30,381 nucleotides of DNA. Source: a virus. The notes beneath the pieces were generated by a model. The model saw only the letters and a program-made list of their open reading frames with translations. It did no database searches and was not told where the DNA came from. A program made the position numbers and the translations under genes. Shown here one piece after another: positions 6,416 to 25,989 of this stretch (the stretch's first letter is position 1; each line of letters opens with the position of its first letter). Location: UHGV virus genome UHGV-0119412; one strand, 5' to 3'.

Positions 6416-6515
6416 CCGGTTAACTCCGTGGTTAGTGGGCGAGTGTTATTGTCCTGACTGGTCTGGTGAGGGGCTATTTATCGGCGATGGATGGCTGATG
6501 GCACATAAACAAATC

Positions 6516-6542
6516 ATAAAAAAGACGGGCATCTGCCCGCCC
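6516..6542 (-). terminator. Rho-independent terminator downstream of the tail fibre chaperone gene
   Basis: On the minus strand a GC stem (CGGGCA-GA-TGCCCG) is followed by TCTTTTTTAT; it lies in the 130-nt gap between the chaperone gene and FI. Confidence 0.55.
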
Positions 6543-6546
6543 TGCG

Positions 6547-6972
6547 TTATTCCGGTTTAACCGGCCACTCAATATCCGGTGCCGTGGTGGTGTCGACCGC
6601 GTTCAGCGCCTGAATATATTTCATCCACGCAATCAGGCTGGCCTTGTCATCGTCGCTGATGATGTCGAGCTGCAGCTCAGTCTGCCACAGGCTGATTGTC
6701 GACTGCGCTTCATTAAGTAATACACCTCTCTTTCTTTCTGCATCAGCAGCCAACTCCTCAGGAGAAGGCAACGGAATATCCAGCCATACGGGATAACCAT
6801 TCTCATCCACCCCTCTTACTTTTCCCTCTGGTGGCTCCTGCATAAAATCATCGGCAATATTTCCGTCAATTTCTATTCCATCATCAGGCCATGTGCCTGA
6901 TTGTTCATAAGCTGCCTTCAGCGCAATCGGGAAGAATGCATTTTTTTTAGCACTAAATACATAAGTCTGCAT
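6547..6972 (-). CDS. Tail fibre assembly chaperone (gpG/Tfa-like)
   Basis: 141-aa ORF immediately downstream of the tail fibre gene (1-nt gap); acidic; AT-richer than the phage core. Confidence 0.7.
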   Translation of the reverse strand: MQTYVFSAKKNAFFPIALKAAYEQSGTWPDDGIEIDGNIADDFMQEPPEGKVRGVDENGYPVWLDIPLPSPEELAADAERKRGVLLNEAQSTISLWQTELQLDIISDDDKASLIAWMKYIQALNAVDTTTAPDIEWPVKPE

Positions 6973-6973
6973 T

Positions 6974-7939
6974 TTATCGCCCTATGGAAATATAACTAAA
7001 ACGGAAATTCTGAGCGTTATCACTTGCCGCAATACGCCACGATGAATTGCTGATGTGTTCGAAGTTAACAGCAAGTACAGGTGTAGTTGGTGCCGTGGGA
7101 TTTGACTGCACAGCATCGGACATAATGCTGACTGAAACCAGTGGCTGATTTGGAAACGGTATCGGAAAATTTCCACTGATAAAACGCGTTGTATTACCTG
7201 CATAGGTTCCGAATTGCACAACATGCCCGCTTGGCAACTTAAACCATCCGCTTCCTGAAGCAAATGCCCCCATATCCGGCACTTGATTCGCCGCAGTCCC
7301 CACATCTCTCTTAGCCGCCTCTTTAAGACCCAAATTTTGCAAAATTTGGCTTACCAGACCGGCATCAACCATTTCTTTAAGCGCGTTCGCAATCAATGGG
7401 TACTGCTTATGTGGATTGGCGGCCTCAACATGTTTTTTCATCAGGTCATCAGCATATCCTTTCACCTCGATAATCTTGTCGTCGACATACTGGCGCGTTG
7501 CCAGCACGACTGCCGGGTCGATTTTCAGGGTGATTGCCGATGTGCTCGACACAATCAGAATCATGCGAATGGTCTGCGTGCGACCGCTTCCCTCCTGCAG
7601 TTGTGGCTTGTAGGTCTCCGGACAGTTCGCCACGGCAATCAGAATACCATCATCGTCATAGAGACCAATCTCGCGGATCCAGAAACCACCTTCATTCTCG
7701 GGAATAATCTGTTCCGCGATAATCTGACTGGTATTGGCCGGGTCAACGGTCAGCAGGTTCAGCGGCGCGATGCGTTTCTGGTTAATGAGCTTCGTCTGCG
7801 CCGGGTCAGGGGTCGGCAACGTACCATTCGCATCACCGACGGCCATCTGCGTCAGGTTGAGTTTGGTACCGAGTGCCGCCGCGTTCGCCAGCCGCGCCGC
7901 GCCCTGATTGGTCAGAATGGCAAAATATTTTGCGGTCAT
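6974..7939 (-). CDS. Tail fibre protein, gpH-type N-terminal domain with a short divergent C-terminal domain
   Basis: 321-aa ORF whose N-terminus (MTAKYFAILTNQGAARLANA...MAVGD...GGFWIREIGLYDDDGILIAVAN...YKPQLQEGSGRTQTIRMILIVSS) matches the conserved baseplate-binding domain of P2 gpH as recalled; it is much shorter than P2 gpH (669 aa). Confidence 0.8.
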   Translation of the reverse strand: MTAKYFAILTNQGAARLANAAALGTKLNLTQMAVGDANGTLPTPDPAQTKLINQKRIAPLNLLTVDPANTSQIIAEQIIPENEGGFWIREIGLYDDDGILIAVANCPETYKPQLQEGSGRTQTIRMILIVSSTSAITLKIDPAVVLATRQYVDDKIIEVKGYADDLMKKHVEAANPHKQYPLIANALKEMVDAGLVSQILQNLGLKEAAKRDVGTAANQVPDMGAFASGSGWFKLPSGHVVQFGTYAGNTTRFISGNFPIPFPNQPLVSVSIMSDAVQSNPTAPTTPVLAVNFEHISNSSWRIAASDNAQNFRFSYISIGR

Positions 7940-8544
7940 GCGTTCACTCTCAGATTATCAATCAAATGGATGGCCGAGGCCGGGTAATATTCACCGCCGA
8001 CGACAATCTCCTCGGGGGTGTAGGGGTAAACAGTCAGCGCGTCGCCGTGATAGCATCCCGCGCCGACATACAGTTCGCCGGTCGAGCTCAGACTGATAGC
8101 CAGCCCGGTCAGGTGGCGACTTGCCGGTTTGGCGTCTTCAATCAGTCGCTCAAGCTCCTGATACATTTCGTCAGTGATGCCGCTGTCGAGGACGCCAACA
8201 ACGAGGCGGAATGTGCCTGGCTCCTCGTCGAGTTGCCACCACTCGCGCACCTCAATCAGAAAGCCGAGCGGCTCGACGACCCGACGCAATGCGCTGATGG
8301 TGCCTTTGTGCTGATGGACGAAAAACGAGGACGCGCAGACGCTGCGCTTTGTCGCCTCCGGCCATTTCTCATCCCACCTGTCGACCGACAGCGCCCACGC
8401 CAGATACGGCAGCAGCTTTACCGGGCAGGTGCGCCAGTTCCACAGGGTGCGCAGCGGTACCGGCACGCGCTGAATCTTAGAGAACGCAGCGGCGGCGGCG
8501 ACCTCCAGCGGCGACGAGCCAACGGGTAATAGCCGGTCATTCAT
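7936..8544 (-). CDS. I: Baseplate protein gpI
   Basis: 202-aa ORF between J and the fibre gene, overlapping both by a few nt; position matches P2 gpI. Confidence 0.75.
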   Translation of the reverse strand: MNDRLLPVGSSPLEVAAAAAFSKIQRVPVPLRTLWNWRTCPVKLLPYLAWALSVDRWDEKWPEATKRSVCASSFFVHQHKGTISALRRVVEPLGFLIEVREWWQLDEEPGTFRLVVGVLDSGITDEMYQELERLIEDAKPASRHLTGLAISLSSTGELYVGAGCYHGDALTVYPYTPEEIVVGGEYYPASAIHLIDNLRVNA

Positions 8545-9799: not shown

Positions 9800-10437
9800 A
9801 ACGGTGCCCCCGTTTGCCCGCCGCTGTCGCCCGGGTGTTTATGGGTGTGGAGTACCTTGCCATTAGACGACAGTGACCCGCCGGTATGTTCGATATTGCC
9901 GCTCATCTTGCCGCCTTTCTGCACCTCAAGCGTCGCCGTCGTTAGCTTATTGGTGCAAATCACCTCCGGGGTGTCGAGGGTGATACTGGTCGAGGCTTTC
10001 ACCAGTACCAGCGGTACGGTTGCGGTGATGGACTCCGATGCCGTCACGTCGGCCGTTTTTATGCCGCTGACCGTCAGCGCGCCGGTTTCGGGCTCGTACT
10101 CAATGACCGCACCATCAGGGAAAGCCACATGCCACGCATCCGCCGAGGCCGACGGGGCGGGGTTATCGTCGGAGAAAATACCCGGCAGCACGAAAGCGGT
10201 ATCAAGCTCGCCACCGATTGCCAGCAGCAGAACCTGCTCACCGACCGAGGGAGCCCACCACGTCCGCGAACGACCGGCGCGGGTGGTCAGCCAGTTCAGC
10301 CATGTAGTCTGGATCCCGCCGCTTTGTACGCGGCACAGCCCCTGCACAGTATCGACCTCAGTCACCACGCCTGAGCGGATGAGGTTGCGAATGGCACGTG
10401 CTAACTCTTGAATGGTGTTTAATGTGTTCATGAACAA
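9796..10437 (-). CDS. V: Baseplate spike/assembly protein gpV
   Basis: 213-aa ORF at the head of the V-W-J-I-fibre operon; P2 gpV is 211 aa. Confidence 0.8.
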   Translation of the reverse strand: MFMNTLNTIQELARAIRNLIRSGVVTEVDTVQGLCRVQSGGIQTTWLNWLTTRAGRSRTWWAPSVGEQVLLLAIGGELDTAFVLPGIFSDDNPAPSASADAWHVAFPDGAVIEYEPETGALTVSGIKTADVTASESITATVPLVLVKASTSITLDTPEVICTNKLTTATLEVQKGGKMSGNIEHTGGSLSSNGKVLHTHKHPGDSGGQTGAPL

Positions 10438-10568
10438 AGAATGCCGATTGTTAATGCCAAGAGCAAAACGATTCAGCTGTATGCTCTTCTACACAATTCG
10501 GTGTGCATTCATGTATCATTTGAGTGTTGAATCATTCGAAAATCACACAAAACATATGGCAGGTAGTA

Positions 10569-11405
10569 ATGAAAAGAACTTCATCTTTTAGGCGTACAAT
10601 AAGCAATATGAAATATATTATAGGTATCTTTTTTTTATACTCCGGGCTTATAGTAGGGTTGTCTGTTTATAATGATAACTACAACTCAAAATTCATGGAG
10701 AATTTTCTTGTTAATGCAAATTCTTCAATTTTAGACTTTCTTGTTTTGGGTGTGATTCTTTACTATTTTGAAAATAAAAGGCAAAATAAAGATGCTATTC
10801 ACGAACTAATTGAAGATCTTGAAAATCTGGCAAAGCATTCTTCTGCAGAACTGAATATTATGAAGATAAAAATCATACGTCAGTTAAATGCCAAAGGAAT
10901 ATATAACATTCAAGTTCCAAGGATTGAACTTGATAAAATGTCCACTATCAAATATTTACATTTTAAAGACGCTGACTTAACCGGCTTGAATATGAGTGAA
11001 TCATACATTAGAGATTGTTCTTTCGATAATTGCACAATTCAAGCTCTAAATATTACAGGCAATAGAGTTAAGAGTGTTAAATTCAAAAACTGCAAGCTAA
11101 GAAATATTAAGGCATTTAATACATGTTTTCAAAATGTTACTTTCGAAAACTGCAGTTTTGAAGGGGGGTATTTTACAGATAGCGAAATGAAAAGCTGCAT
11201 ATTAAAAGGATGTGATTTTAAATCCGTTACTTATGAAGGGGCTAACATGCGGAATGCAAATCTATTAAATTCAATTAACATTAGCGTTAAAGAACTTGTT
11301 AAAGCAAAAAACATAGATTATTTAATTTGTGATGAGCAAATTAAAAATGAAATAAGAAAGGAAAACCCAGCAATAAAAATATCTAGAGGAATAATACGAG
11401 GTTAG
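10569..11405 (+). CDS. Membrane-anchored pentapeptide-repeat protein (cargo/moron)
   Basis: Plus-strand ORF on the strand opposite to its neighbours, clearly AT-rich. Start chosen at the ATG at 10569, preceded by AGGT (the track ORF begins at a GTG at 10524). N-terminal hydrophobic helix (YIIGIFFLYSGLIVGLSVY) then tandem A(D/N)LxX-type pentapeptide repeats (DADLTGLNMSESYIRDCSFDNCTIQALNITGNRVKSVKFKNCKLRNIKAFNTCFQNVTFENCSFEGGYF...). Confidence 0.7.
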   Translation: MKRTSSFRRTISNMKYIIGIFFLYSGLIVGLSVYNDNYNSKFMENFLVNANSSILDFLVLGVILYYFENKRQNKDAIHELIEDLENLAKHSSAELNIMKIKIIRQLNAKGIYNIQVPRIELDKMSTIKYLHFKDADLTGLNMSESYIRDCSFDNCTIQALNITGNRVKSVKFKNCKLRNIKAFNTCFQNVTFENCSFEGGYFTDSEMKSCILKGCDFKSVTYEGANMRNANLLNSINISVKELVKAKNIDYLICDEQIKNEIRKENPAIKISRGIIRG

Positions 11406-11460
11406 GGAATCGAACCCAACTCAGTGGGCACGCCCACCTAGACACCAGTCCACCTCTATC
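11404..11460 (-). other. tRNA-like fragment (T-loop-like GGGTTCGATTCCC on the minus strand), not an intact tRNA
   Basis: The plus strand reads GGGAATCGAACCCAAC, the reverse complement of a canonical tRNA T-arm box; no complete cloverleaf could be folded by hand. Confidence 0.2.
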
Positions 11461-11486
11461 GCTGAGATATATAATAATTCTCAGCG
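11460..11486. other. Perfect 8-bp stem hairpin (CGCTGAGA / TCTCAGCG) with an 11-nt AT loop
   Basis: Seen directly, between the cargo gene and the gpS stop; no flanking T-run, so not a classic intrinsic terminator. Confidence 0.3.
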
Positions 11487-11495
11487 AATCCAAAG

Positions 11496-11951
11496 TCAAT
11501 GGCGTTGACATAAAGCATCCATAATTAAACTCTCAACTTTTTGTAAGTCTGATGAAGAGTATCCGAGCAACGGTCGCGCCTCGTACTGCACATCCCGGCT
11601 GTTGCGGTTTGGCCGGTCTTTTAGGCCGTACTGATGCACCCGCGCCATGCGCTGCACCTTGCCGGTAAACTCCACCACCGCCGCACTGTCGCTGCCTTTG
11701 GCTTTCATAAAGCGACTGGTGCGCAGTTTGGCGAACATTTCACGTTTAATCCGACCTTTCTTGCTCCGCACCGGCTGGCGCTTTCGTGCCGCATACGGGG
11801 TGCCGTCGGGTGCCTGCTGGCGCTTGATACGCTGTTGCTGACTGGTACGCAGCTTTTTCGCAACCTCAGCCGCCATTTGCCGACGTGCCGCCGGTGACAG
11901 GCTGGCAATCAGACCGGCAAGGCGTTCCTGCAGCGCGGTTAATTCACTCAT
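11496..11951 (-). CDS. S: Tail completion protein gpS
   Basis: 151-aa ORF; P2 gpS is 150 aa; overlaps the R gene end as in P2. Confidence 0.8.
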   Translation of the reverse strand: MSELTALQERLAGLIASLSPAARRQMAAEVAKKLRTSQQQRIKRQQAPDGTPYAARKRQPVRSKKGRIKREMFAKLRTSRFMKAKGSDSAAVVEFTGKVQRMARVHQYGLKDRPNRNSRDVQYEARPLLGYSSSDLQKVESLIMDALCQRH

Positions 11952-14518: not shown

Positions 14519-15268
14519 TTAACCGGCGGTTTTTACCGCCTTTGGTGGACGCCCGCGCTTTGCCGCCGGTTTGGTGGCAGGTTTGCGCGTGCGCGGTTTA
14601 GTCGTTTTACGGGGCGCAGCATCGGGCTTAGGCTTCAATGCCCGCTCCAGTCGCTCAATCTCTTTGCGCACACCGGCATTGCGGTCGAGCTGCATCGCGC
14701 GCTGAAACTGTGCCAGTGCTTCGGCGCTCTGACCGGCATCGCGCAGGGTTAGACCGGTCACCTTATGCAGTCGAGCGCGCACCATATCGGGAACGTCAGC
14801 GCCGTCGGTCAGGCTAAGGGTGGTCAGCAGCAATGCGAGGTCGACAGGCTCACCGGCATCGCGCAGGCGCAGCGCGGCAAGCGCCACCTCCTCAACCAGC
14901 ATGTAAGGTGTCGTGCGGCGATAGTCAGAGGTGAGGCCGTACTTCAGCGCGTATGGCGCAATTTCCAGCGCGCCAGCGATATCACCGGCATCGAGACGCC
15001 ACAGCATGACTGTCATCAGAATGTCATCCTGCGCACCACGGCCATCAGCCAGCACACCGGCGACCCACGGCGCATAGAACGGCAGCAGCTCACGCTTTTT
15101 CGCGGCTTTCAGTTCGTTTGAACGGATGGTTTTCAACGTGCGGCGGTCATCGGCCAGCTTTACCAGCATCTGCTCGTAGGCGGTTGCATGGCGCAGCGGG
15201 GCTTGTTCCCGCTGCGCGGCTTGAGAGGCCGAGACCCGCATCATGTGACGCTGTGCGGGGCTCGTCAT
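14519..15268 (-). CDS. M: Terminase small (endonuclease) subunit gpM
   Basis: Start taken at the Met (MTSPAQRHMM...) 4 nt after the N stop, giving 249 aa (P2 gpM is 247 aa); basic C-terminal tail. The track ORF extends to 15364, overlapping N. Confidence 0.8.
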   Translation of the reverse strand: MTSPAQRHMMRVSASQAAQREQAPLRHATAYEQMLVKLADDRRTLKTIRSNELKAAKKRELLPFYAPWVAGVLADGRGAQDDILMTVMLWRLDAGDIAGALEIAPYALKYGLTSDYRRTTPYMLVEEVALAALRLRDAGEPVDLALLLTTLSLTDGADVPDMVRARLHKVTGLTLRDAGQSAEALAQFQRAMQLDRNAGVRKEIERLERALKPKPDAAPRKTTKPRTRKPATKPAAKRGRPPKAVKTAG

Positions 15269-17436: not shown

Positions 17437-19206
17437 ATGACCATTTCCACCGATACAACCTTGTTGCATGACCCGCGACGGCAGGCATCGCTGCTTTACT
17501 GGCAGGGTTTTTCCGTGCCACAGATTGCCGAAATGCTGCAGGTCAAGCGCCCGACCGTGCAGAGCTGGAAGCAGCGCGACGGCTGGGACGGCATCGCGCC
17601 GATTTCCCGCGTTGAAAGCAGCCTTGAGGCTAGGCTGATTCAGCTCATCGCCAAGCCGCAAAAGACAGGGGGTGATTTCAAAGAGATTGACCTGCTCGGA
17701 CGGCAGATTGAACGGTTGGCGCGAGTCAACCGCTACAGCCAGACCGGCAACGAAGCCGACCTTAACCCCAACGTCGCCAACCGCAACAAAGGGGAGCGCA
17801 AAAAGCCGAAAAAGAATTTTTTCAGCGACGAGGCTATCGATAAACTAGAGGAATTATTTTTCGACCAGTCTTTCGAGTACCAGTTGCAGTGGTACCGCGC
17901 AGGACTGGAGCACCGTATTCGTGACATTCTCAAATCCCGCCAGATTGGCGCGACATTCTATTTCTCCCGCGAGGCACTGCTGCGCGCACTCAAAACCGGC
18001 CATAACCAGATATTTTTATCAGCCAGTAAAACGCAGGCTTACGTGTTCCGCGAATACATCATCCAGTTTGCGCGACTGGTCGACGTTGACCTGACTGGCG
18101 ACCCGATTGTCATCGGTAACAACGGCGCAAAACTGATTTTTCTCGGTACCAATTCCAACACCGCGCAGAGCCATAACGGCGATCTGTATGTCGATGAAAT
18201 ATTCTGGATCCCGAATTTTCAGAAACTGCGCAAAGTCGCCTCGGGCATGGCCTCGCAAAAGCACCTGCGCTCGACCTATTTTTCGACACCTTCCACGCTG
18301 GCGCACGGCGCTTACCCCTTCTGGTCTGGCGAGCTGTTCAACAAGGGGCGCAGCCGGATTGCCGACCGCATCGAAATCGACATCAGTCACAGCGCGCTCG
18401 CCGGTGGCCAGCTCTGCGACGATGGCCAGTGGCGGCAGATTGTCACCATTGAGGACGCCCTTGCGGGTGGCTGCACCCTGTTCGACCTCGACCAGCTCAA
18501 ACGCGAAAACAGTGATGAGGACTTTAAGAACCTGTTTATGTGCGAGTTTGTCGACGATAAAGCGTCGGTATTCCCGTTCGAGGAGCTGCAGCGCTGCATG
18601 GTCGATGTGATGGAGGAATGGGAGGACTTTGCCCCGTTCGCCGACCATCCGTTCGGCTCTCGTCCTGTCTGGATTGGCTACGACCCGTCACACACCGGCG
18701 ACAGTGCCGGGTGCGTCGTGCTCGCGCCGCCGGTGGTCTCTGGTGGCAAGTTCCGCATGCTGGAGCGCCACCAGTGGAAGGGCATGGATTTTGCAGCACA
18801 GGCAGAGGGCATCCGCAAGCTGACCGAGAAATACAACGTCGAATACATCGGCATTGACGCAACCGGCCTCGGTCTCGGCGTGTTCCAGCTGGTGCGCTCA
18901 TTTTACCCGGCGGCACGCGGCATCCGTTATACACCTGAAATGAAAACCGCAATGGTACTCAAGGCGAAAGACACCATTCGCCGTGGCTGTCTGGAGTACG
19001 ACGCCGGAGCAACCGACGTCACGCAGTCGTTTATGTCCATCCGCAAAACCATGACCAGCAGCGGGCGCAGCGCCACCTATGAGGCCAGCCGCACCGAGGA
19101 AGCCAGCCACGCCGATATCGCATGGGCGACCATGCACGCCCTGTTAAACGAACCGCTTTCTGCCGGTAGCGGCATGCAACCTAAATCTATTCTGGAGTTC
19201 AACTAA
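17437..19206 (+). CDS. P: Terminase large (ATPase) subunit gpP
   Basis: 589-aa ORF divergent from O; P2 gpP is 590 aa. Confidence 0.9.
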   Translation: MTISTDTTLLHDPRRQASLLYWQGFSVPQIAEMLQVKRPTVQSWKQRDGWDGIAPISRVESSLEARLIQLIAKPQKTGGDFKEIDLLGRQIERLARVNRYSQTGNEADLNPNVANRNKGERKKPKKNFFSDEAIDKLEELFFDQSFEYQLQWYRAGLEHRIRDILKSRQIGATFYFSREALLRALKTGHNQIFLSASKTQAYVFREYIIQFARLVDVDLTGDPIVIGNNGAKLIFLGTNSNTAQSHNGDLYVDEIFWIPNFQKLRKVASGMASQKHLRSTYFSTPSTLAHGAYPFWSGELFNKGRSRIADRIEIDISHSALAGGQLCDDGQWRQIVTIEDALAGGCTLFDLDQLKRENSDEDFKNLFMCEFVDDKASVFPFEELQRCMVDVMEEWEDFAPFADHPFGSRPVWIGYDPSHTGDSAGCVVLAPPVVSGGKFRMLERHQWKGMDFAAQAEGIRKLTEKYNVEYIGIDATGLGLGVFQLVRSFYPAARGIRYTPEMKTAMVLKAKDTIRRGCLEYDAGATDVTQSFMSIRKTMTSSGRSATYEASRTEEASHADIAWATMHALLNEPLSAGSGMQPKSILEFN

Positions 19207-19207
19207 A

Positions 19208-20254
19208 ATGGGTAAACAAAAATCCCGTAAAGCCAACGCACAAAAGGCCAGCAAACCACAACAACTGATCGCCAGCGCACCGCCAAAAACGACAGCGTTC
19301 ACCTTCGGCGAGCCGGTGCCGGTACTCGATAAGCGCGACATTCTGGATTACGTCGAGTGCATCAGTAACGGCAAATGGTACGAGCCGCCGGTCAGCTTCT
19401 CAGGGCTGGCAAAGAGTCTGCGCTCTGCCGTGCATCACAGCTCGCCAATTTATGTTAAGCGTAACGTGCTCGCGAGCACCTACATTCCGCACCCGTTGTT
19501 ATCCCGTCAGGATTTCAGCCGCTTTGCGCTCGATTATCTGGTGTTCGGTAACGCCTTTCTTGAGCAGCGCCACAGCGTCACCGGCCAGTTAATCAAACTG
19601 CTGGCCTCGCCAGCCAAATACACCCGACGCGGAGTCGACGATTCGATTTTCTGGTTTGTGGAAAACTTCACCCAGCCGCACGAGTTCGCGCCTGATACCG
19701 TGTTTCACCTGCTGGAGCCCGACATTAATCAGGAGATTTACGGCCTGCCCGAATATCTCAGCGCGCTAAATTCCGCCTGGCTGAATGAATCCGCGACGCT
19801 GTTCCGCCGCAAGTATTATCAGAACGGCGCGCACGCGGGTTACATCATGTATGTGACTGACCCGGCGCAGAGCGCGACCGACGTCGAATCGCTGCGCGAG
19901 GCGATGCGCAATTCAAAAGGGCTCGGCAACTTTAAGAACCTGTTTTTCTACGCTCCCGGCGGAAAACCGGACGGCATCAAAATCGTGCCACTGAGCGAGG
20001 TCGCCACAAAGGATGACTTTTTCAACATCAAGAAGGCCAGTGCCGCCGATCTGATGGACGCGCACCGCGTACCGTTCCAGCTCATGGGCGGCAAGCCCGA
20101 GAATATCGGTTCACTCGGTGATGTTGAGAAGGTGGCAAAGGTATTTGTGCGCAACGAGCTGTCGCCGCTACAGGACAGGTTCAGGGAGGTAAATGACTGG
20201 CTCGGCATGGAGGTCATCAGATTCAAAGAGTACACCCTCGACAACCCAGAATAA
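19208..20254 (+). CDS. Q: Portal protein gpQ
   Basis: 348-aa ORF immediately after P (2-nt gap); P2 gpQ is about 344 aa. Confidence 0.9.
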   Translation: MGKQKSRKANAQKASKPQQLIASAPPKTTAFTFGEPVPVLDKRDILDYVECISNGKWYEPPVSFSGLAKSLRSAVHHSSPIYVKRNVLASTYIPHPLLSRQDFSRFALDYLVFGNAFLEQRHSVTGQLIKLLASPAKYTRRGVDDSIFWFVENFTQPHEFAPDTVFHLLEPDINQEIYGLPEYLSALNSAWLNESATLFRRKYYQNGAHAGYIMYVTDPAQSATDVESLREAMRNSKGLGNFKNLFFYAPGGKPDGIKIVPLSEVATKDDFFNIKKASAADLMDAHRVPFQLMGGKPENIGSLGDVEKVAKVFVRNELSPLQDRFREVNDWLGMEVIRFKEYTLDNPE

Positions 20255-20331
20255 CTTAGGCCGCCACAATCTCTGCGCTCATTATTGAAGATGCAATCTG
20301 CGAAAGCTATAGTGCATCGAATATCAAAACA

Positions 20332-21336
20332 ATGGGCGCGGAGATTAATATTTTGGAAACTGATTTTAAAATAACCCTCGAAGGTTTCGCTACTGAGCAA
20401 GAAGCAAATAATATCGGTAATTTCACACTAGAAGCTATCCGAGCTTTAACAAAAAATCTCAATCTTGATATCTCCAAATTAAAATGCGTGATTGTTTCCT
20501 ATAACTTCAGTGAAGCTCTTCAAAAGGTAACATCCTCTTACCAACACAAATCCCCTAGTTCGTTTACCAATAGCAAACAGGGCGCAGCCGTCGGGCAGTT
20601 AGTAACAAAAATTGGCAATGATGGGCTATGTGAAGAATATACCCTTGTGCTATCGATTGATTTTTTTGTTGAGCTTTTCAATGATGGTAGCTTCTTAAAA
20701 CTGAAAGAAGAAGGATACCTCGCAGTCATCCATCGCATTCACCATGAATTAGTGCACGTACATGAAAAAAACTTACTAACATGCTTAGCCCAAAACTTTA
20801 CAGTCAACGAGTATGGTAGCGCGCTTCTTATCTCAGCCACGCGTGCATGGTCTGAATATCTCGCTAATTACATGTCTTCGGGGTCTGCCCCTCAAGAAAC
20901 TATCGATTTATTTTTAGAGAATCTTGACACTGTTGTAAATGAAGTATCTGACGAGATTGAAAAACTCATCTGGGGTTATAAGTACGGTAATATTTCTCTG
21001 AATGACATGTATCTCGAAGTAAAAAAACGTATCAGGCTAATCATCAACTCTTATGCTTATGCGATGGGTTATGTCCATTCTCTAAACATCAATATTAAAG
21101 AATACGATCCAAAGCTATCCCTTACACTATCCAACTCAAAGATAAGATATCAATTATCAGAATTAGGCATTGCTTTTCAGAATCTTTATGGGAAGTTTAA
21201 TGACCAGCACATTACAGGTTTTGGTGATTTTCGGGAGATAACAATAATCATTGATGAAATATTCAAGCAGTTTGGGCTTGTTTTAGAGTGTCCCGATTGG
21301 TCTGGCGACGGTGAACTCTACATACATGTAAATTAG
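20332..21336 (+). CDS. Hypothetical cargo protein with HExxH...NE motif (putative zinc-metallopeptidase-like), between portal and cos
   Basis: 334-aa AT-rich ORF. HHELVH at about nt 20740-20757, with NEYGS about 17 residues later, resembles the gluzincin HExxH-x(n)-E pattern. No obvious Shine-Dalgarno before the first ATG. Confidence 0.6.
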   Translation: MGAEINILETDFKITLEGFATEQEANNIGNFTLEAIRALTKNLNLDISKLKCVIVSYNFSEALQKVTSSYQHKSPSSFTNSKQGAAVGQLVTKIGNDGLCEEYTLVLSIDFFVELFNDGSFLKLKEEGYLAVIHRIHHELVHVHEKNLLTCLAQNFTVNEYGSALLISATRAWSEYLANYMSSGSAPQETIDLFLENLDTVVNEVSDEIEKLIWGYKYGNISLNDMYLEVKKRIRLIINSYAYAMGYVHSLNINIKEYDPKLSLTLSNSKIRYQLSELGIAFQNLYGKFNDQHITGFGDFREITIIIDEIFKQFGLVLECPDWSGDGELYIHVN

Positions 21337-21555
21337 TTTAATCATAGTAGAAACATAATTAGCAGTTTGAATCCTGCCACTCCTGTAAAGCCGCTGCTCC
21401 TGGTGGCTTTTCCATGCACACCACCATCACGCATCAGATGCGTCTCACGCGCACGAACACACCCGACCACCAACGAACCAGCAGCGACCACGACAGCGCC
21501 ATCACGACGCGCTCAGAGGATAATTTTTATTATTACGCATCACTGCTGGCGCGCA

Positions 21556-21574
21556 ATGCTTTCCCCGCCACGCC
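21556..21574. other. cos site (19-nt cohesive-end sequence, 186-type)
   Basis: The plus strand reads ATGCTTTCCCCGCCACGCC, whose reverse complement GGCGTGGCGGGGAAAGCAT matches the 186 cohesive end as I recall it (P2 differs at two positions); it lies in a GC-rich non-coding stretch between Q and the replication region, as expected. Confidence 0.6.
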
Positions 21575-21772
21575 TGCCCGCTTTATGGGGCGGTTTTAAT
21601 GCAGTTGCATGACCACTCTGGATCCCCGCCAGCTCTTGCGGCGCACGTACAAAACGGGTAATCCCGGCGCATGCAGAACCATGCACCTGTTGCATGCACA
21701 GCTTATTTATTGATAAATCACCTTAAATTTACAAAAATTACGGACATTGGTTCTTTCCAAACATGATAGCCT

Positions 21773-21788
21773 CTCGATAATTATCGAG
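21773..21788. promoter_or_regulatory. Perfect 16-bp palindrome CTCGATAATTATCGAG upstream of the 313-aa cargo gene (putative operator overlapping a -10-like GATAAT)
   Basis: Seen directly; ends about 14 nt before the GGAG Shine-Dalgarno of the ORF starting at 21812. Confidence 0.4.
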
Positions 21789-21811
21789 CCTATTTTTGAA
21801 CGGAGAAAGAT

Positions 21812-22753
21812 ATGCAAGGTGAAGTTGACGAACAGCAACCCAATGAGATTATGTCGGAGTTTGGATACTATCCAGTAGAAGTTAACATTGAGACTGAACA
21901 ATTTTCTTTGCTTACTTTACCTGGTCTCAATGAGAAAGTGGAGCGTGTTAACAATGATAAAAACGTTGTGAAAGGTTGGATATACCCTGGAAACCAAGAT
22001 GTATATAACCTTAATGGTGGCATATCCACAATGCCTTATAGTCACCGTGTATTCAGTATGCCCAAAACGCACACACTAAAATTAAAAAATACATCCTCGT
22101 TAGAAACTCTCAACTTTATTGTGTGGTGCCTTTCTTTTTTCAAGGGAATAAGATTGACAACCACTGACGCTGGTTTTTTAGATGCAACCACTATCAAGCC
22201 CACTAAGTTAACCGACTTTATTCTCGTTGGATGCTCTGAAAAAGAAATCATAGAACTGGCTCTTAATTATATAAATGGCAAACATAAGGATGCGCACTCC
22301 CCCAAAAGAATTGCGGCAGTGGTGCATGCACTATTCTTATCTCAAAACCCACAATACCTTTCTTTTGAAAAATTCCAGTACCTTTACATGGCACTTGATG
22401 GGTGCTTTGCTTTGTCGTGGGCTGAGCATGACAAGGCTCCTGATAAAAAACCGCCAAATCATTACAAGCGATTAAAGTGGATGTGCAAAATTTATGGGTT
22501 ATCAATTCCCACATGGGTGTCAGGTAAAAAAAACATTTCTGGCATCCGCAATGATAATTTTCATGAGGCTATTTTTTTTGGTCAACCGCTTGGTTTCTCA
22601 AGTATTAACAACAGTCAATATGGTAACGATATATTGCTGCAAATGCAGGCACTGGTATGTCGCCTATTAGCGGCAATACTGTCGGTTAATGATTGCAGTT
22701 ATCTCAAATCTTCGGTCAACTCACGAGATTACCATTCATTAAAAATAAATTAA
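21812..22753 (+). CDS. Hypothetical cargo protein with HEPN-like RNxxxH motif (candidate abortive-infection/defence RNase)
   Basis: 313-aa AT-rich ORF with a good Shine-Dalgarno (GGAGAAAGA) and the motif GIRNDNFHEAIFFG (about nt 22546-22563); it sits where P2 carries old/tin, between cos and the replication module. Confidence 0.65.
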   Translation: MQGEVDEQQPNEIMSEFGYYPVEVNIETEQFSLLTLPGLNEKVERVNNDKNVVKGWIYPGNQDVYNLNGGISTMPYSHRVFSMPKTHTLKLKNTSSLETLNFIVWCLSFFKGIRLTTTDAGFLDATTIKPTKLTDFILVGCSEKEIIELALNYINGKHKDAHSPKRIAAVVHALFLSQNPQYLSFEKFQYLYMALDGCFALSWAEHDKAPDKKPPNHYKRLKWMCKIYGLSIPTWVSGKKNISGIRNDNFHEAIFFGQPLGFSSINNSQYGNDILLQMQALVCRLLAAILSVNDCSYLKSSVNSRDYHSLKIN

Positions 22754-23236: not shown

Positions 23237-23467
23237 TTAACGCCAGCTATCGTCTTCCCAAATCTCTTGTAATATGCTGCCTAATGTTTCTCTGTCCGCC
23301 TCTTTATCGAATCCGATAGCCTCTACACCAGTCATTGACCCTTTCTTAACGTTAACTTTTGTTGCAGGAAAAACGCATTGTACTCGATGTGTTATTTCAT
23401 TCTGAAAAGCATCAATGATCTGTTGCCCTAATTTTTGCTCTTTATCCAACGTGATATTGATTCTCAT
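23237..23467 (-). CDS. DinI-family protein (equivalent to the Tum C-terminal/DinI-like domain)
   Basis: 76-aa ORF MRINITLDKEQ...GSILQEIWEDDSWR closely resembles E. coli DinI as recalled (MRIEVTI...ISEILQETWES...); it lies downstream of a LexA box. Confidence 0.75.
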   Translation of the reverse strand: MRINITLDKEQKLGQQIIDAFQNEITHRVQCVFPATKVNVKKGSMTGVEAIGFDKEADRETLGSILQEIWEDDSWR

Positions 23468-23470
23468 AAT

Positions 23471-23653
23471 CTAATCAGCCTTATAAAAATTATCATCTTC
23501 GGTTTCGTTATTTTCGCTGTTTGCTAGGTCTGCAATGAGAGTGAGCGCGAGCTTTAAGTCTGATGGCTTGCAGTTTGCAATCAGAGATACCTCGGCAATA
23601 AATTGCACACAAGCCCACTTTTGCTGCGTTCGGCTGAAATGTTCGCCAACCAT
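23471..23653 (-). CDS. Small protein, in-frame upstream partner of the DinI-like ORF (possible Tum N-terminal domain)
   Basis: 60-aa ORF with a GGAGG Shine-Dalgarno; separated from the DinI-like ORF by a single in-frame TAG plus one codon; acidic C-terminus. Confidence 0.5.
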   Translation of the reverse strand: MVGEHFSRTQQKWACVQFIAEVSLIANCKPSDLKLALTLIADLANSENNETEDDNFYKAD

Positions 23654-23674
23654 GAAATCCCTCCCATAGGGTTA

Positions 23675-23690
23675 CTGTATATTTATACAG
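23675..23690. promoter_or_regulatory. LexA box (SOS operator) CTGTATATTTATACAG overlapping the promoter of the Tum/DinI-like operon
   Basis: Matches the CTGT-N8-ACAG consensus; lies 22-37 nt upstream of the 60-aa ORF start in the gap after gene A; TTGCCA and TATAAA-like hexamers are present on the minus strand. Confidence 0.7.
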
Positions 23691-23766: not shown

Positions 23767-25989
23767 TTACTCATGTATTGGTTTTGATGCTTCAGCCATC
23801 GCCGCAACACGATTAAGGATTTTCCGAGCTTTAGCCTCATGCGATGGTGCTGCGGAAAATATTTCTCCTTTGGCCGTTCCGCGTAGCCATTTACCATCAA
23901 AACAACTTTTACCACCGGCCATCAGGTGCAGGGCTTCGCCCCGGCTGATATTAATGCCGGTTGTCAGATGTATTTCGTCGATAGTTTTAGCTATAGCTGC
24001 GTTTTGCTCATCCGTTCCGTGGATGAATTTTCGCCGTGCTGCTGGCTTTTGCTTCCTGAGTCGGTTGGTCAATTCTCGTCTTTCATGCCGACTCAGTGGT
24101 TTTGTTAAATCCAGTATCGGTGGATCGCTTTCGCTTCCCGTACAGTTATTGACAGAACTCCGAGGGACGGCTTTGCCGTCCTGAAGGTCAACGGCCAAAT
24201 CAACAGCACGCTTCGGAACAATCTTCCACTGAGTGAGCCGGGTTAAAATCGGGCTTCCTGCACCTATGGAGGAATCGTAGACCCCCTTAATACATACCGT
24301 TTCCTCACCGTACTGATTAAGCTCGGTACGCGGTTCATACAGTGTGCGCACCTGTAAATCATCGCGACGGACAAACGGCCCACCCTGAGCATTAACATAA
24401 CCAGCCCAGTCACCAGCGTCGGCGGCATCATGGACGGCGGCAAACTCAACGCTCAGACCGTGCGCGGTTTCGGTATCAGCGAGGCGACGCAACTCACGGT
24501 AAACCGTCACCGGCGCACCACCAATAAACTGAAACTGACGGATGTGCCAGCGCGCAGCCCATGCTGAAACGGCGGGGGCTGTCTCTTTCAGCAGCTCACC
24601 GCTTTCATCATCGGTTTCACCATCGAGAGCATAACCGTCGATATTTTTTGAAATGTATTTAGCAACATAGCCGGTTGCGCTGCCTTTCTCCGGGTTAATG
24701 GACTCGGCGTGGAAACGTGCTTTTTTGGATTTATCGCTTTTCAGTTCGTGGCGGTCTTCTTTCCATGCGTATTTACGGACGATGGAGCGAACATATTCAA
24801 CATCTTCCGGCAGCATGAACATCAGCATGTGCCAGTGTGGAGTGCCGTCGTGATGGGGCTCGGCGACACGAATACCGAAAATACGGACATCTTCCCGATG
24901 TAGTTTGGCACGGATACGCGCCCAGATACCGGTTAGATAGTTTTGCGTGTCAGCCGGGCTGGCACCGCTCCATTTGCTGTTACGGTAACCGGCTTTAGTC
25001 GTGGCGTGATATTTTGACGGCGCGGTTAGAGTGTAAAACTCACCGACATAACCGAGCTCATTACAGATGTTTTCAAACCCACGAATGCGGGTCATGAGCT
25101 CACAGCGGCGAATCGCAGGGTTAGCAACTGAGCCATCATATTTTTCAATCAGGCTGATACGGTTGCCGTCTTCGTCTTCGAGATCCAGACCTTTGAGAAA
25201 TTCACGAGTGCGGCGCTTTTGTTCACGCCAGTCAGTCACGCAGTTTTTACTCGCGTAAGTGTTTTTTTTCTTACTGACGTTGCCGACTGCAATTTGCAGG
25301 TGTTCGCGCCACGTAGCTGCAACACGGCGCAAACGACCGCGCCACCACCCATCGTTAAACATTTTGGCGATAGCCGGTGCGATTTCATCCGCACCGACAT
25401 ATTTTTTTTCAACCCGCTCCCAATGTGGTGGGATAACGTTGAATTGGAGGGAAATAAAGCCAGCACGAATATACCAGGTGTACAGCGTTTTAAGCTCGCC
25501 GAATCCGTGGTCATTAATGTTGGCAAGTTCACCACGAATGAAATTAGCAATATCAGCGGCCAACAGGTCAACATCAGCGCGCGACATGTCCGGGAGACGG
25601 TTATATCGGGCGACCATATTAACCATGCGTGACGACAGATATTGCATTTGCTGAGTATCAAAATGACTTCCAAAAACAGCGGTTGATACCTTGCTGTTGA
25701 TACCAGCGCATTCGTATTTTTTTGCGACCAGTTCAAGACGCGGCAATGCCTTTTTGCAGAAGCTGATTAAAAATGCATTGGCTCGTTGACTACCCTGATT
25801 TTGCTCCAGCACCGCAGCAGTGCGATAAACATCTAACCGCACGCAGTCGGGCTGGAGAGAAAGCACCTTTTTTGCATGCAGCAAAGCCGCGAACATACGG
25901 TCGCGGCGATGCTGTTGCTCATAAGTAAGGTATGGGCTGGAGATTGCCGACCGTGGGACGTTCCACGGATAAGCGAATTGAACAGCCAA
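23767..25989 (-). CDS. A: Replication initiation protein A (rolling-circle nickase, gpA-type)
   Basis: 740-aa ORF with an HUH-type motif (TPHWHMLMF); it follows the small early genes as in P2/186. Confidence 0.9.
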   Translation of the reverse strand: MAVQFAYPWNVPRSAISSPYLTYEQQHRRDRMFAALLHAKKVLSLQPDCVRLDVYRTAAVLEQNQGSQRANAFLISFCKKALPRLELVAKKYECAGINSKVSTAVFGSHFDTQQMQYLSSRMVNMVARYNRLPDMSRADVDLLAADIANFIRGELANINDHGFGELKTLYTWYIRAGFISLQFNVIPPHWERVEKKYVGADEIAPAIAKMFNDGWWRGRLRRVAATWREHLQIAVGNVSKKKNTYASKNCVTDWREQKRRTREFLKGLDLEDEDGNRISLIEKYDGSVANPAIRRCELMTRIRGFENICNELGYVGEFYTLTAPSKYHATTKAGYRNSKWSGASPADTQNYLTGIWARIRAKLHREDVRIFGIRVAEPHHDGTPHWHMLMFMLPEDVEYVRSIVRKYAWKEDRHELKSDKSKKARFHAESINPEKGSATGYVAKYISKNIDGYALDGETDDESGELLKETAPAVSAWAARWHIRQFQFIGGAPVTVYRELRRLADTETAHGLSVEFAAVHDAADAGDWAGYVNAQGGPFVRRDDLQVRTLYEPRTELNQYGEETVCIKGVYDSSIGAGSPILTRLTQWKIVPKRAVDLAVDLQDGKAVPRSSVNNCTGSESDPPILDLTKPLSRHERRELTNRLRKQKPAARRKFIHGTDEQNAAIAKTIDEIHLTTGINISRGEALHLMAGGKSCFDGKWLRGTAKGEIFSAAPSHEAKARKILNRVAAMAEASKPIHE

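Follow-up and report, generated by a model that had tools for sequence, protein, structure and literature searches.

The stretch of DNA analysed here, in the following called the window (UHGV virus genome UHGV-0119412, 30,381 nucleotides), represents a prophage of the PSP3-like type (Eganvirus), situated between rplS and yfiB. Within this P2-like genome, the cos site falls in the interval from portal gene Q to replication gene A. The portal gene (homologue of gpQ and of 186 W; 19208–20254, + strand) is followed by a gene for a 334-aa protein (20332–21336, + strand), an intergenic region (21337–21811) and a gene for a 313-aa protein (21812–22753, + strand). Beyond these lie an SOS module (23237–23690, - strand) and gene A, encoding the rolling-circle endonuclease (23767–25989, - strand). 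The original prediction had assigned a 186-type cos to the whole interval between the two cargo genes. The site does lie between these two ORFs and within that interval, but the interval is the whole intergenic region and the conserved cos is narrower, covering approximately 21549–21699.

When searching the whole window for the cohesive-end sequence GGCGTGGCGGGGAAAGCAT we found a single exact occurrence with 0 mismatches at 21556–21574 on the - strand. On the + strand these positions read ATGCTTTCCCCGCCACGCC, the reverse complement of which is GGCGTGGCGGGGAAAGCAT. No second site was detected in the window when up to 3 mismatches were allowed. Bases 1–19 of the phage 186 record U32222 are identical to this 19-mer (19/19), and that record describes them as ‘cos; cohesive end; top strand cut at 5' end and bottom strand cut at 3' end’. 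The same holds for bases 1–19 of PSP3 (NC_005340), annotated as ‘identical to 186 cos’, and the same 19-mer has been quoted as the cos of PSP3/SEN1 (PMC5261728). The cohesive end shared by P2 and P4, GGCGAGGCGGGGAAAGCAC, differs from GGCGTGGCGGGGAAAGCAT in 2 of 19 bases, at positions 5 and 19. The 19-mer had been proposed to be the 186 cohesive end, with an alignment to the published P2 and 186 cos sequences as the check; this alignment, with 19/19 identical bases against 186 and 2 differences against P2, bears the proposal out.

The right and left ends of 186, PSP3, P2 and P4 were joined as circular junctions and aligned with the reverse complement of the window. The alignment contains a near-invariant block of 55 bp, made up of 29 bp of the right-end side, the 19-mer and 7 bp of the left-end side, which corresponds to positions 21549–21603 of the window (- strand). 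Two of its 55 positions differ between the window and 186 (53/55 identical); the corresponding values are 54/55 for PSP3, 50/55 for P2 and 49/55 for P4. A ‘55-bp core’ of P2-family cos sites goes back to Ziermann & Calendar 1990, as cited in PMC5694545 and PMC9594776, and by its sequence the 55-bp block of the window appears to fit this published core. Homology extends beyond the core for about 125 bp on the right-end side and about 170 bp on the left-end side. Over 130 bp on the right-end side the window is 86% identical to 186, 81% to PSP3, 59% to P2 and 69% to P4. Over 171 bp on the left-end side the identities are 82% (186), 85% (PSP3), 65% (P2) and 47% (P4). By blastn, window 21388–21574 aligns with PSP3 188–1 at 86.7% identity and window 21575–21698 with PSP3 30636–30513 at 82.3%. 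The left-end flank (21411–21548) is conserved in phages of the 186/PSP3 type only, with a column conservation of about 50% over 43 cos regions. Taken together, the values for the 19-mer (19/19), the core (53/55) and the flanks (82–86%) against 186 justify the label ‘186-type’.

These 43 distinct cos regions, comprising 38 loci of other species with an exact 19-mer, the four phages and the window, were used for a conservation profile, in which four zones can be distinguished. The region from -37 to +26 (window 21549–21611) is near-invariant. A second peak lies between -125 and -95 (window 21669–21699), and beyond -130 conservation is at background level. The left-end flank is moderately conserved as far as the terminator described below. 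The second peak coincides with a distal block on the right-end side (21669–21699, - strand) that contains three TGCAT motifs, at -124, -111 and -101 when counted from the top-strand cut; a fourth lies at -29 inside the core. These offsets are common to P2, P4, 186, PSP3 and the window, the first motif being located at -124 (-123 in P2, -120 in PSP3). From the window-wide density only 0.34 TGCAT motifs are expected per 130 bp, and the motifs were found in most of 40 loci of other species. A distant blastn search matched the cos region in 3097 of 5426 complete E. coli genomes; the weakest of these matches cover only window 21549–21613 (approximately), the core common to P2-like and P4-like elements. 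Scanning 21200–21950 against Rfam at E ≤ 1 returned no RNA family that would account for the intergenic conservation. According to PMC9594776, DNA flanking the 55-bp core increases transduction of P2 cosmids more than 1000-fold. We regard the TGCAT array as a candidate terminase-binding site. Conserved at -124/-111/-101 from P4 to 186, it may be a recognition element of the terminase (gpM) of the P2 family.

On both sides of the conserved cos the intergenic region contains further elements. An intrinsic terminator, the equivalent of 186 tW and P2 tQ, lies at 21387–21410 (+ strand) and consists of a 9-bp stem followed by UUUU, with a folding energy of -11.7 kcal/mol (z = -2.8) in comparison to -15.1 kcal/mol for 186 tW. 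It is positionally homologous to the annotated tW, is now located downstream of the 334-aa gene, and its stem is kept with changed bases in Citrobacter amalonaticus. On the other side, 21700–21811 (+ strand) is an AT-rich promoter and leader region of the 313-aa gene without homology to PSP3. It features promoter-like hexamers at 21710–21738 and 21754–21781, an RBS and, between the two, a perfect 16-bp palindrome, CTCGATAATTATCGAG, at 21773–21788. This region including the palindrome is 98% conserved along with the 313-aa gene in Enterobacter chuandaensis. The palindrome could serve as an operator or as a leader hairpin (-8.2 kcal/mol).

Two small ORFs have been annotated over cos: 21414–21599 (+ strand; 61 aa in ON470592) and 21540–21695 (- strand; 51 aa by PGAP, WP_172943998 / WP_164966458). 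Neither of these ORFs, which span the cos cut site, has a match in Pfam. Their frame is lost in P2 (19 codons), the pattern of conserved positions resembles that of motifs and not that of codons, and the G+C-rich cos DNA has several frames with stop-free spans. The small hypothetical proteins across cos are therefore probably annotation artefacts.

In a blastn comparison of the complete window with PSP3, the two genomes form colinear blocks of 80–92% identity, every one of which lies on the opposite strand. Therefore the standard 186/P2 map reads in the opposite direction, as the reverse complement of the window, and the cos site fixes the orientation of the prophage as originally claimed. Colinearity holds on both sides of the circular junction: the portal block of the alignment covers window 19266–20254, and from 22745 onward the window aligns to PSP3 orf37, tumB (DinI-like), tumA and gene A. 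The element encodes its own terminase, both subunits of which are full length. The large subunit (gpP homologue; 17437–19206, + strand) matches Pfam Terminase_6N (6e-60), Terminase_6C (2e-44) and Terminase_5 (9e-27), and its amino acid identity is 97.6% to PSP3 P, 98.3% to 186 P over the part of the protein that was compared, and 88.7% to P2 P. The small subunit (gpM homologue; 14519–15268, - strand; 249 aa) is colinear with and approximately 92% identical to PSP3 M; in strain N56, which carries a near-identical prophage, PGAP annotates it as ‘phage terminase small subunit’. The portal protein (Pfam Phage_portal, 5e-13) shares 93.7% amino acid identity with its PSP3 and 186 counterparts, and gene A (Pfam Phage_GPA, 4e-130) forms the other boundary of the variable locus around cos. 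The SOS module consists of the DinI-like tumB (23237–23467; Pfam DinI, 2e-17) and tumA (23471–23653), both homologous to their PSP3 counterparts, and of a LexA box, CTGTATATTTATACAG, located just upstream of tumA at 23675–23690. The box matches the consensus perfectly and predicts that the prophage would be SOS-inducible like 186 and PSP3. The N56 prophage (bounded by rplS/ogr and int/yfiB) comprises about 30.8 kb, in comparison to 30.6 kb for 186 and PSP3, and its PGAP annotation contains a complete late-gene set without pseudogene flags.

Outside the cos region we noticed several differences from PSP3. The tail-fibre gene (6974–7939, - strand) encodes 321 aa in comparison to 675 aa in PSP3, and 6445–8100 is largely unalignable to PSP3; this may reflect a different receptor-binding module or a shortened fibre. 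A 747-bp gene between terminase and portal (PSP3 1217–1963), which is present in 186 and PSP3, is absent from the window (19206–19208). This gene, which P2 does not carry either, is paralogous to the terminase ATPase domain and shares about 35% identity with gpP residues 125–371. Between baseplate gene V and tail-completion gene S the window contains a gene for a pentapeptide-repeat protein (10524–11405, + strand) that PSP3 lacks (unaligned region 10432–11562). It represents a third accessory-gene locus of the prophage, presumably at the position of P2 orf30, and its NCBIfam match to the Hailong effector HalA is weak and below threshold (8.8e-12, 45 bits against a cutoff of 250).

Two further observations concern the genomes in which the cos sequence was found. 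The N56 host genome (NZ_CM165908.1) matches the cos core in 2 places, the second of which may belong to a P4-like satellite or to a second P2-like element that could be served by the same terminase. Assemblies labelled Martelella alba and Chryseobacterium sp. (L025 and L042) contain a 186-type cos and, in addition, a portal or gpA gene 80–99% identical to the E. coli prophage, which suggests that enterobacterial contigs contaminate these assemblies, labelled as non-enterobacterial.

The two genes next to cos were analysed with regard to origin and function. Both are absent from PSP3 and 186 and have a G+C content of 33–42%, in comparison to about 55% in the phage backbone. In window 20255–21387, a 1133-bp insert carrying the 334-aa gene replaces the 9 bp that separate the portal stop codon from the terminator in PSP3. 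Window 21699–22744, containing the 313-aa gene and its upstream region, takes the place of orf38 and likewise has no PSP3 counterpart. Each gene also occurs without the other in related prophages: Enterobacter chuandaensis (L046) carries the 313-aa gene (92% identity) behind the same promoter region, palindrome included, and its Q side is empty, and Citrobacter amalonaticus (L013) carries the 334-aa gene (95% identity) without the 313-aa gene. The two cargo genes are independent modules and were acquired independently. We also considered that they might form an obligate pair which is split by cos and rejoined on circularisation; this was rejected because each occurs without the other. Absence from PSP3 and 186, AT-richness and independent presence or absence in related prophages agree with the designation of both flanking genes as cargo. 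Their position between Q and gene A, a long way from the att ends, already makes them part of the phage genome and not flanking host DNA, as had been proposed. In the N56 copy of the 313-aa gene (L009, 21813–22556) one extra base causes a frameshift, so that 247 aa are annotated; the locus is otherwise identical.

The 334-aa protein contains an HExxH motif and a downstream acidic ligand in a zincin fold, and it is predicted to be a zincin-like metallopeptidase. For the 313-aa protein, which has a conserved R-x4-6-H motif in an all-helical domain, we predict a HEPN protein of the Apea-like kind whose N-terminal domain is rich in beta structure. No curated HEPN family model matched it (no Pfam, NCBIfam or PADLOC family at E ≤ 0.01), and the only link to such a family is the UniRef name of one homologue. 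Scans of both proteins with Pfam, PADLOC and NCBIfam assigned no family, profile searches against PDB sequences gave insignificant matches only (E > 0.02), and no PADLOC defence system matched the cargo genes. We tentatively put forward the idea that either gene could be, on its own, a prophage-borne anti-phage (abortive-infection) system not described before, considering it rather less probable than its opposite.

Two other explanations of the 19-mer and its surroundings have to be weighed. The sequence might be a chance match, or might belong to a P4-like satellite or another element instead of the prophage's own packaging system. In the 596-Gb genome collection that was searched about 4 matches to a 19-mer are arithmetically expected by chance, and 2 of the 42 matches found there (L024 and L038) lack any other cos or phage feature; P4-like satellites, moreover, share the cos core. 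The two bare matches are consistent with the roughly 4 expected at 596 Gb and are irrelevant for a 30-kb window, in whose 2 x 30,381 positions about 2e-7 exact matches are expected and for which shuffled sequences gave a mean of 0.01 matches even with 3 mismatches. Furthermore, about 300 bp of flanking homology to 186 and PSP3 surround the site. A full P2-like genome surrounds it, with portal gene Q on one side and replication gene A on the other, rather than P4 genes, and P4 itself has the 19-mer of the P2 type, not the 186 type. The flanking homology and the gene context thereby refute an origin by chance or from a satellite, to which we give practically no credence.

A second explanation accepts that cos is genuine by descent and regards it as a relic: the prophage would be defective, for example in tail-fibre, lysis or regulatory functions, and would package no DNA. 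The strong divergence of the tail-fibre region from PSP3 (6445–8100 largely unaligned, with an ORF of 321 aa) speaks for such a state, as does the frameshift in one N56 cargo gene, a sign of some decay in the lineage, and the nearest deposited ‘phage’, vB_EcoM-613R3, is a PHASTER prediction. On the other hand, the packaging, head, tail, lysis, replication and regulatory genes are all present and unflagged in the PGAP annotation of the N56 copy, terminase and portal are 93–98% identical to the PSP3 proteins, and both the core and the TGCAT array are conserved as in isolated phages. Near-identical copies (at least 99.5%) are found in 17 complete E. coli genomes, originating from humans, poultry and frogs. 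We therefore consider a relic improbable. With a tail-fibre gene much shorter than that of PSP3, the production of infectious particles is nevertheless not guaranteed. The reading that we strongly favour on the basis of the sequence comparisons is that window 21549–21699 is the cos of an apparently intact, SOS-inducible E. coli prophage of the 186/PSP3 type (Eganvirus, P2-like), with the mechanism and the placement of the cargo genes set out in the following.

After excision and replication, the phage terminase, consisting of gpM as the small and gpP as the large subunit, would recognise window 21549–21699, probably via the core (-37 to +26) and the TGCAT array at -124/-111/-101 on the right-end side. 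By homology to the annotated 186 and PSP3 sites it would cut the two strands 19 nt apart, with nicks at 21575|21574 (- strand) and 21555|21556 (+ strand). The product would be linear virion DNA with 5'-protruding cohesive ends of 19 nt, the left end being 5'-GGCGTGGCGGGGAAAGCAT, which would re-anneal after injection and restore the circle. From left to right the linear genome would run from the GGCGTGGCGGGGAAAGCAT overhang through the terminator and the 334-aa gene to Q and P, then continue across the att junction to A, tumA/B, orf37 and finally the 313-aa gene, so that both cargo genes would travel in the virion at about 0.2 kb from either end. This arrangement is in line with the expected position of the 334-aa gene at the portal end and the 313-aa gene at the replication end: the former ends about 220 bp from the left end and the latter starts about 237 bp from the right end. 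For virions of this particular prophage we infer cleavage at 21556/21574. The only deposited ‘phage’ that carries this locus is vB_EcoM-613R3; as a PHASTER-predicted prophage, represented by a partial genome with host flanks, it was rejected as evidence for virion ends.

The location of the 334-aa and 313-aa genes between gpQ and gpA, adjoining cos, corresponds to a known site of variable gene content. PMC5694545 credits Dodd & Egan 1996 and Nakayama 1999 with the earlier observation of insertions between cosL and Q. Rousset et al. 2022 (PMC9122126) described the cos-adjacent gpA-gpQ hotspot, in which 18,150 E. coli loci yielded 1,650 gene arrangements, and a 2026 survey gives the same picture (PMC13586616). 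Table S5 of Rousset et al. lists the very arrangement found here (WP_001622301, WP_001622299, WP_001622297, the DinI protein WP_001622296 and WP_000232651, all ‘hypothetical’), as well as WP_001622301 with a different set of partners (PMC9122126). In our own comparison the whole 3.2-kb arrangement was present in only 17 of 408 matching E. coli genomes. Among the 23 loci of other species in which the gap between Q and cos could be assessed, the distance from the 19-mer to the portal gene ranged from 174 to 2206 bp; the gap was empty in 15 (174–192 bp) and occupied in 8 (384–2206 bp).

Since both the hotspot and this exact arrangement have been published, the feature is already known: the original prediction correctly identified a known cos in a known configuration. 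The cos of the window is an ordinary example of the cos-adjacent cargo hotspot of P2-like phages. The main value of the finding lies in annotation, as the ends and the orientation of the packaged genome are fixed, and ‘hypothetical protein’ ORFs placed across cos in public records are probably spurious. Being phage-borne cargo in a hotspot rich in defence systems, the 334-aa and 313-aa genes are reasonable candidates for defence screening. What is known about P2 and 186 packaging is unchanged; the remaining leads are the cargo genes and the role of the TGCAT array.

Compared with the P2 hotspot (old/tin) and the hotspot of Rousset et al., the window shows the same locus, in which a conserved cos is flanked on each side by variable AT-rich cargo. 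Nothing structural distinguishes it from the latter, in which both cargo genes are entered as ‘hypothetical’; the systems tested there did not include them. A more distant parallel is the cos of phage lambda (cosN/cosB/cosQ; PMC4669245), where terminase likewise nicks the strands in a staggered manner to leave cohesive 5' ends and where the sequences for recognition flank the nick site on one side. The lambda overhang, however, measures 12 nt in comparison to 19 nt here, and the sequences are unrelated.

The cos of P2 and P4 shares with the window a 5' cohesive end of 19 nt, the conserved core and the TGCAT motifs at -124/-123, -111, -101 and -29. It differs at positions 5 and 19 of the cohesive end and in the core (49–50/55 identical), and the left-end flank of P4 is unrelated (47%). 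Cos sites of the P2 family are used by the gpM/gpP terminase. In work by Pruss and Calendar and by Bowden and Modrich this terminase is said to be able to mature monomeric circles, concatemers not being required.

Overall, PSP3 (NC_005340) has the closest backbone, with 86–92% nucleotide identity along the genome, an identical 19-mer, a core matching at 54/55 positions and the same tumA/tumB(DinI)/orf37 arm. Unlike the window, it has 9 bp in place of the 1133-bp insert, orf38 in place of the 313-aa gene and an extra 747-bp gene between terminase and portal. The cos of 186 (U32222) likewise has the identical 19-mer, a core matching at 53/55 positions, right and left flanks that are 86% and 82% identical, and the same TGCAT offsets, and it is also located between the terminator of the portal operon and the SOS/replication arm. 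In 186, however, 177 bp separate the end of the portal gene from cos, towards which the SOS operon (tum, orf97) is transcribed, whereas in the window the 334-aa gene is inserted on the portal side and the 313-aa gene, reading away from cos, is located on the other.
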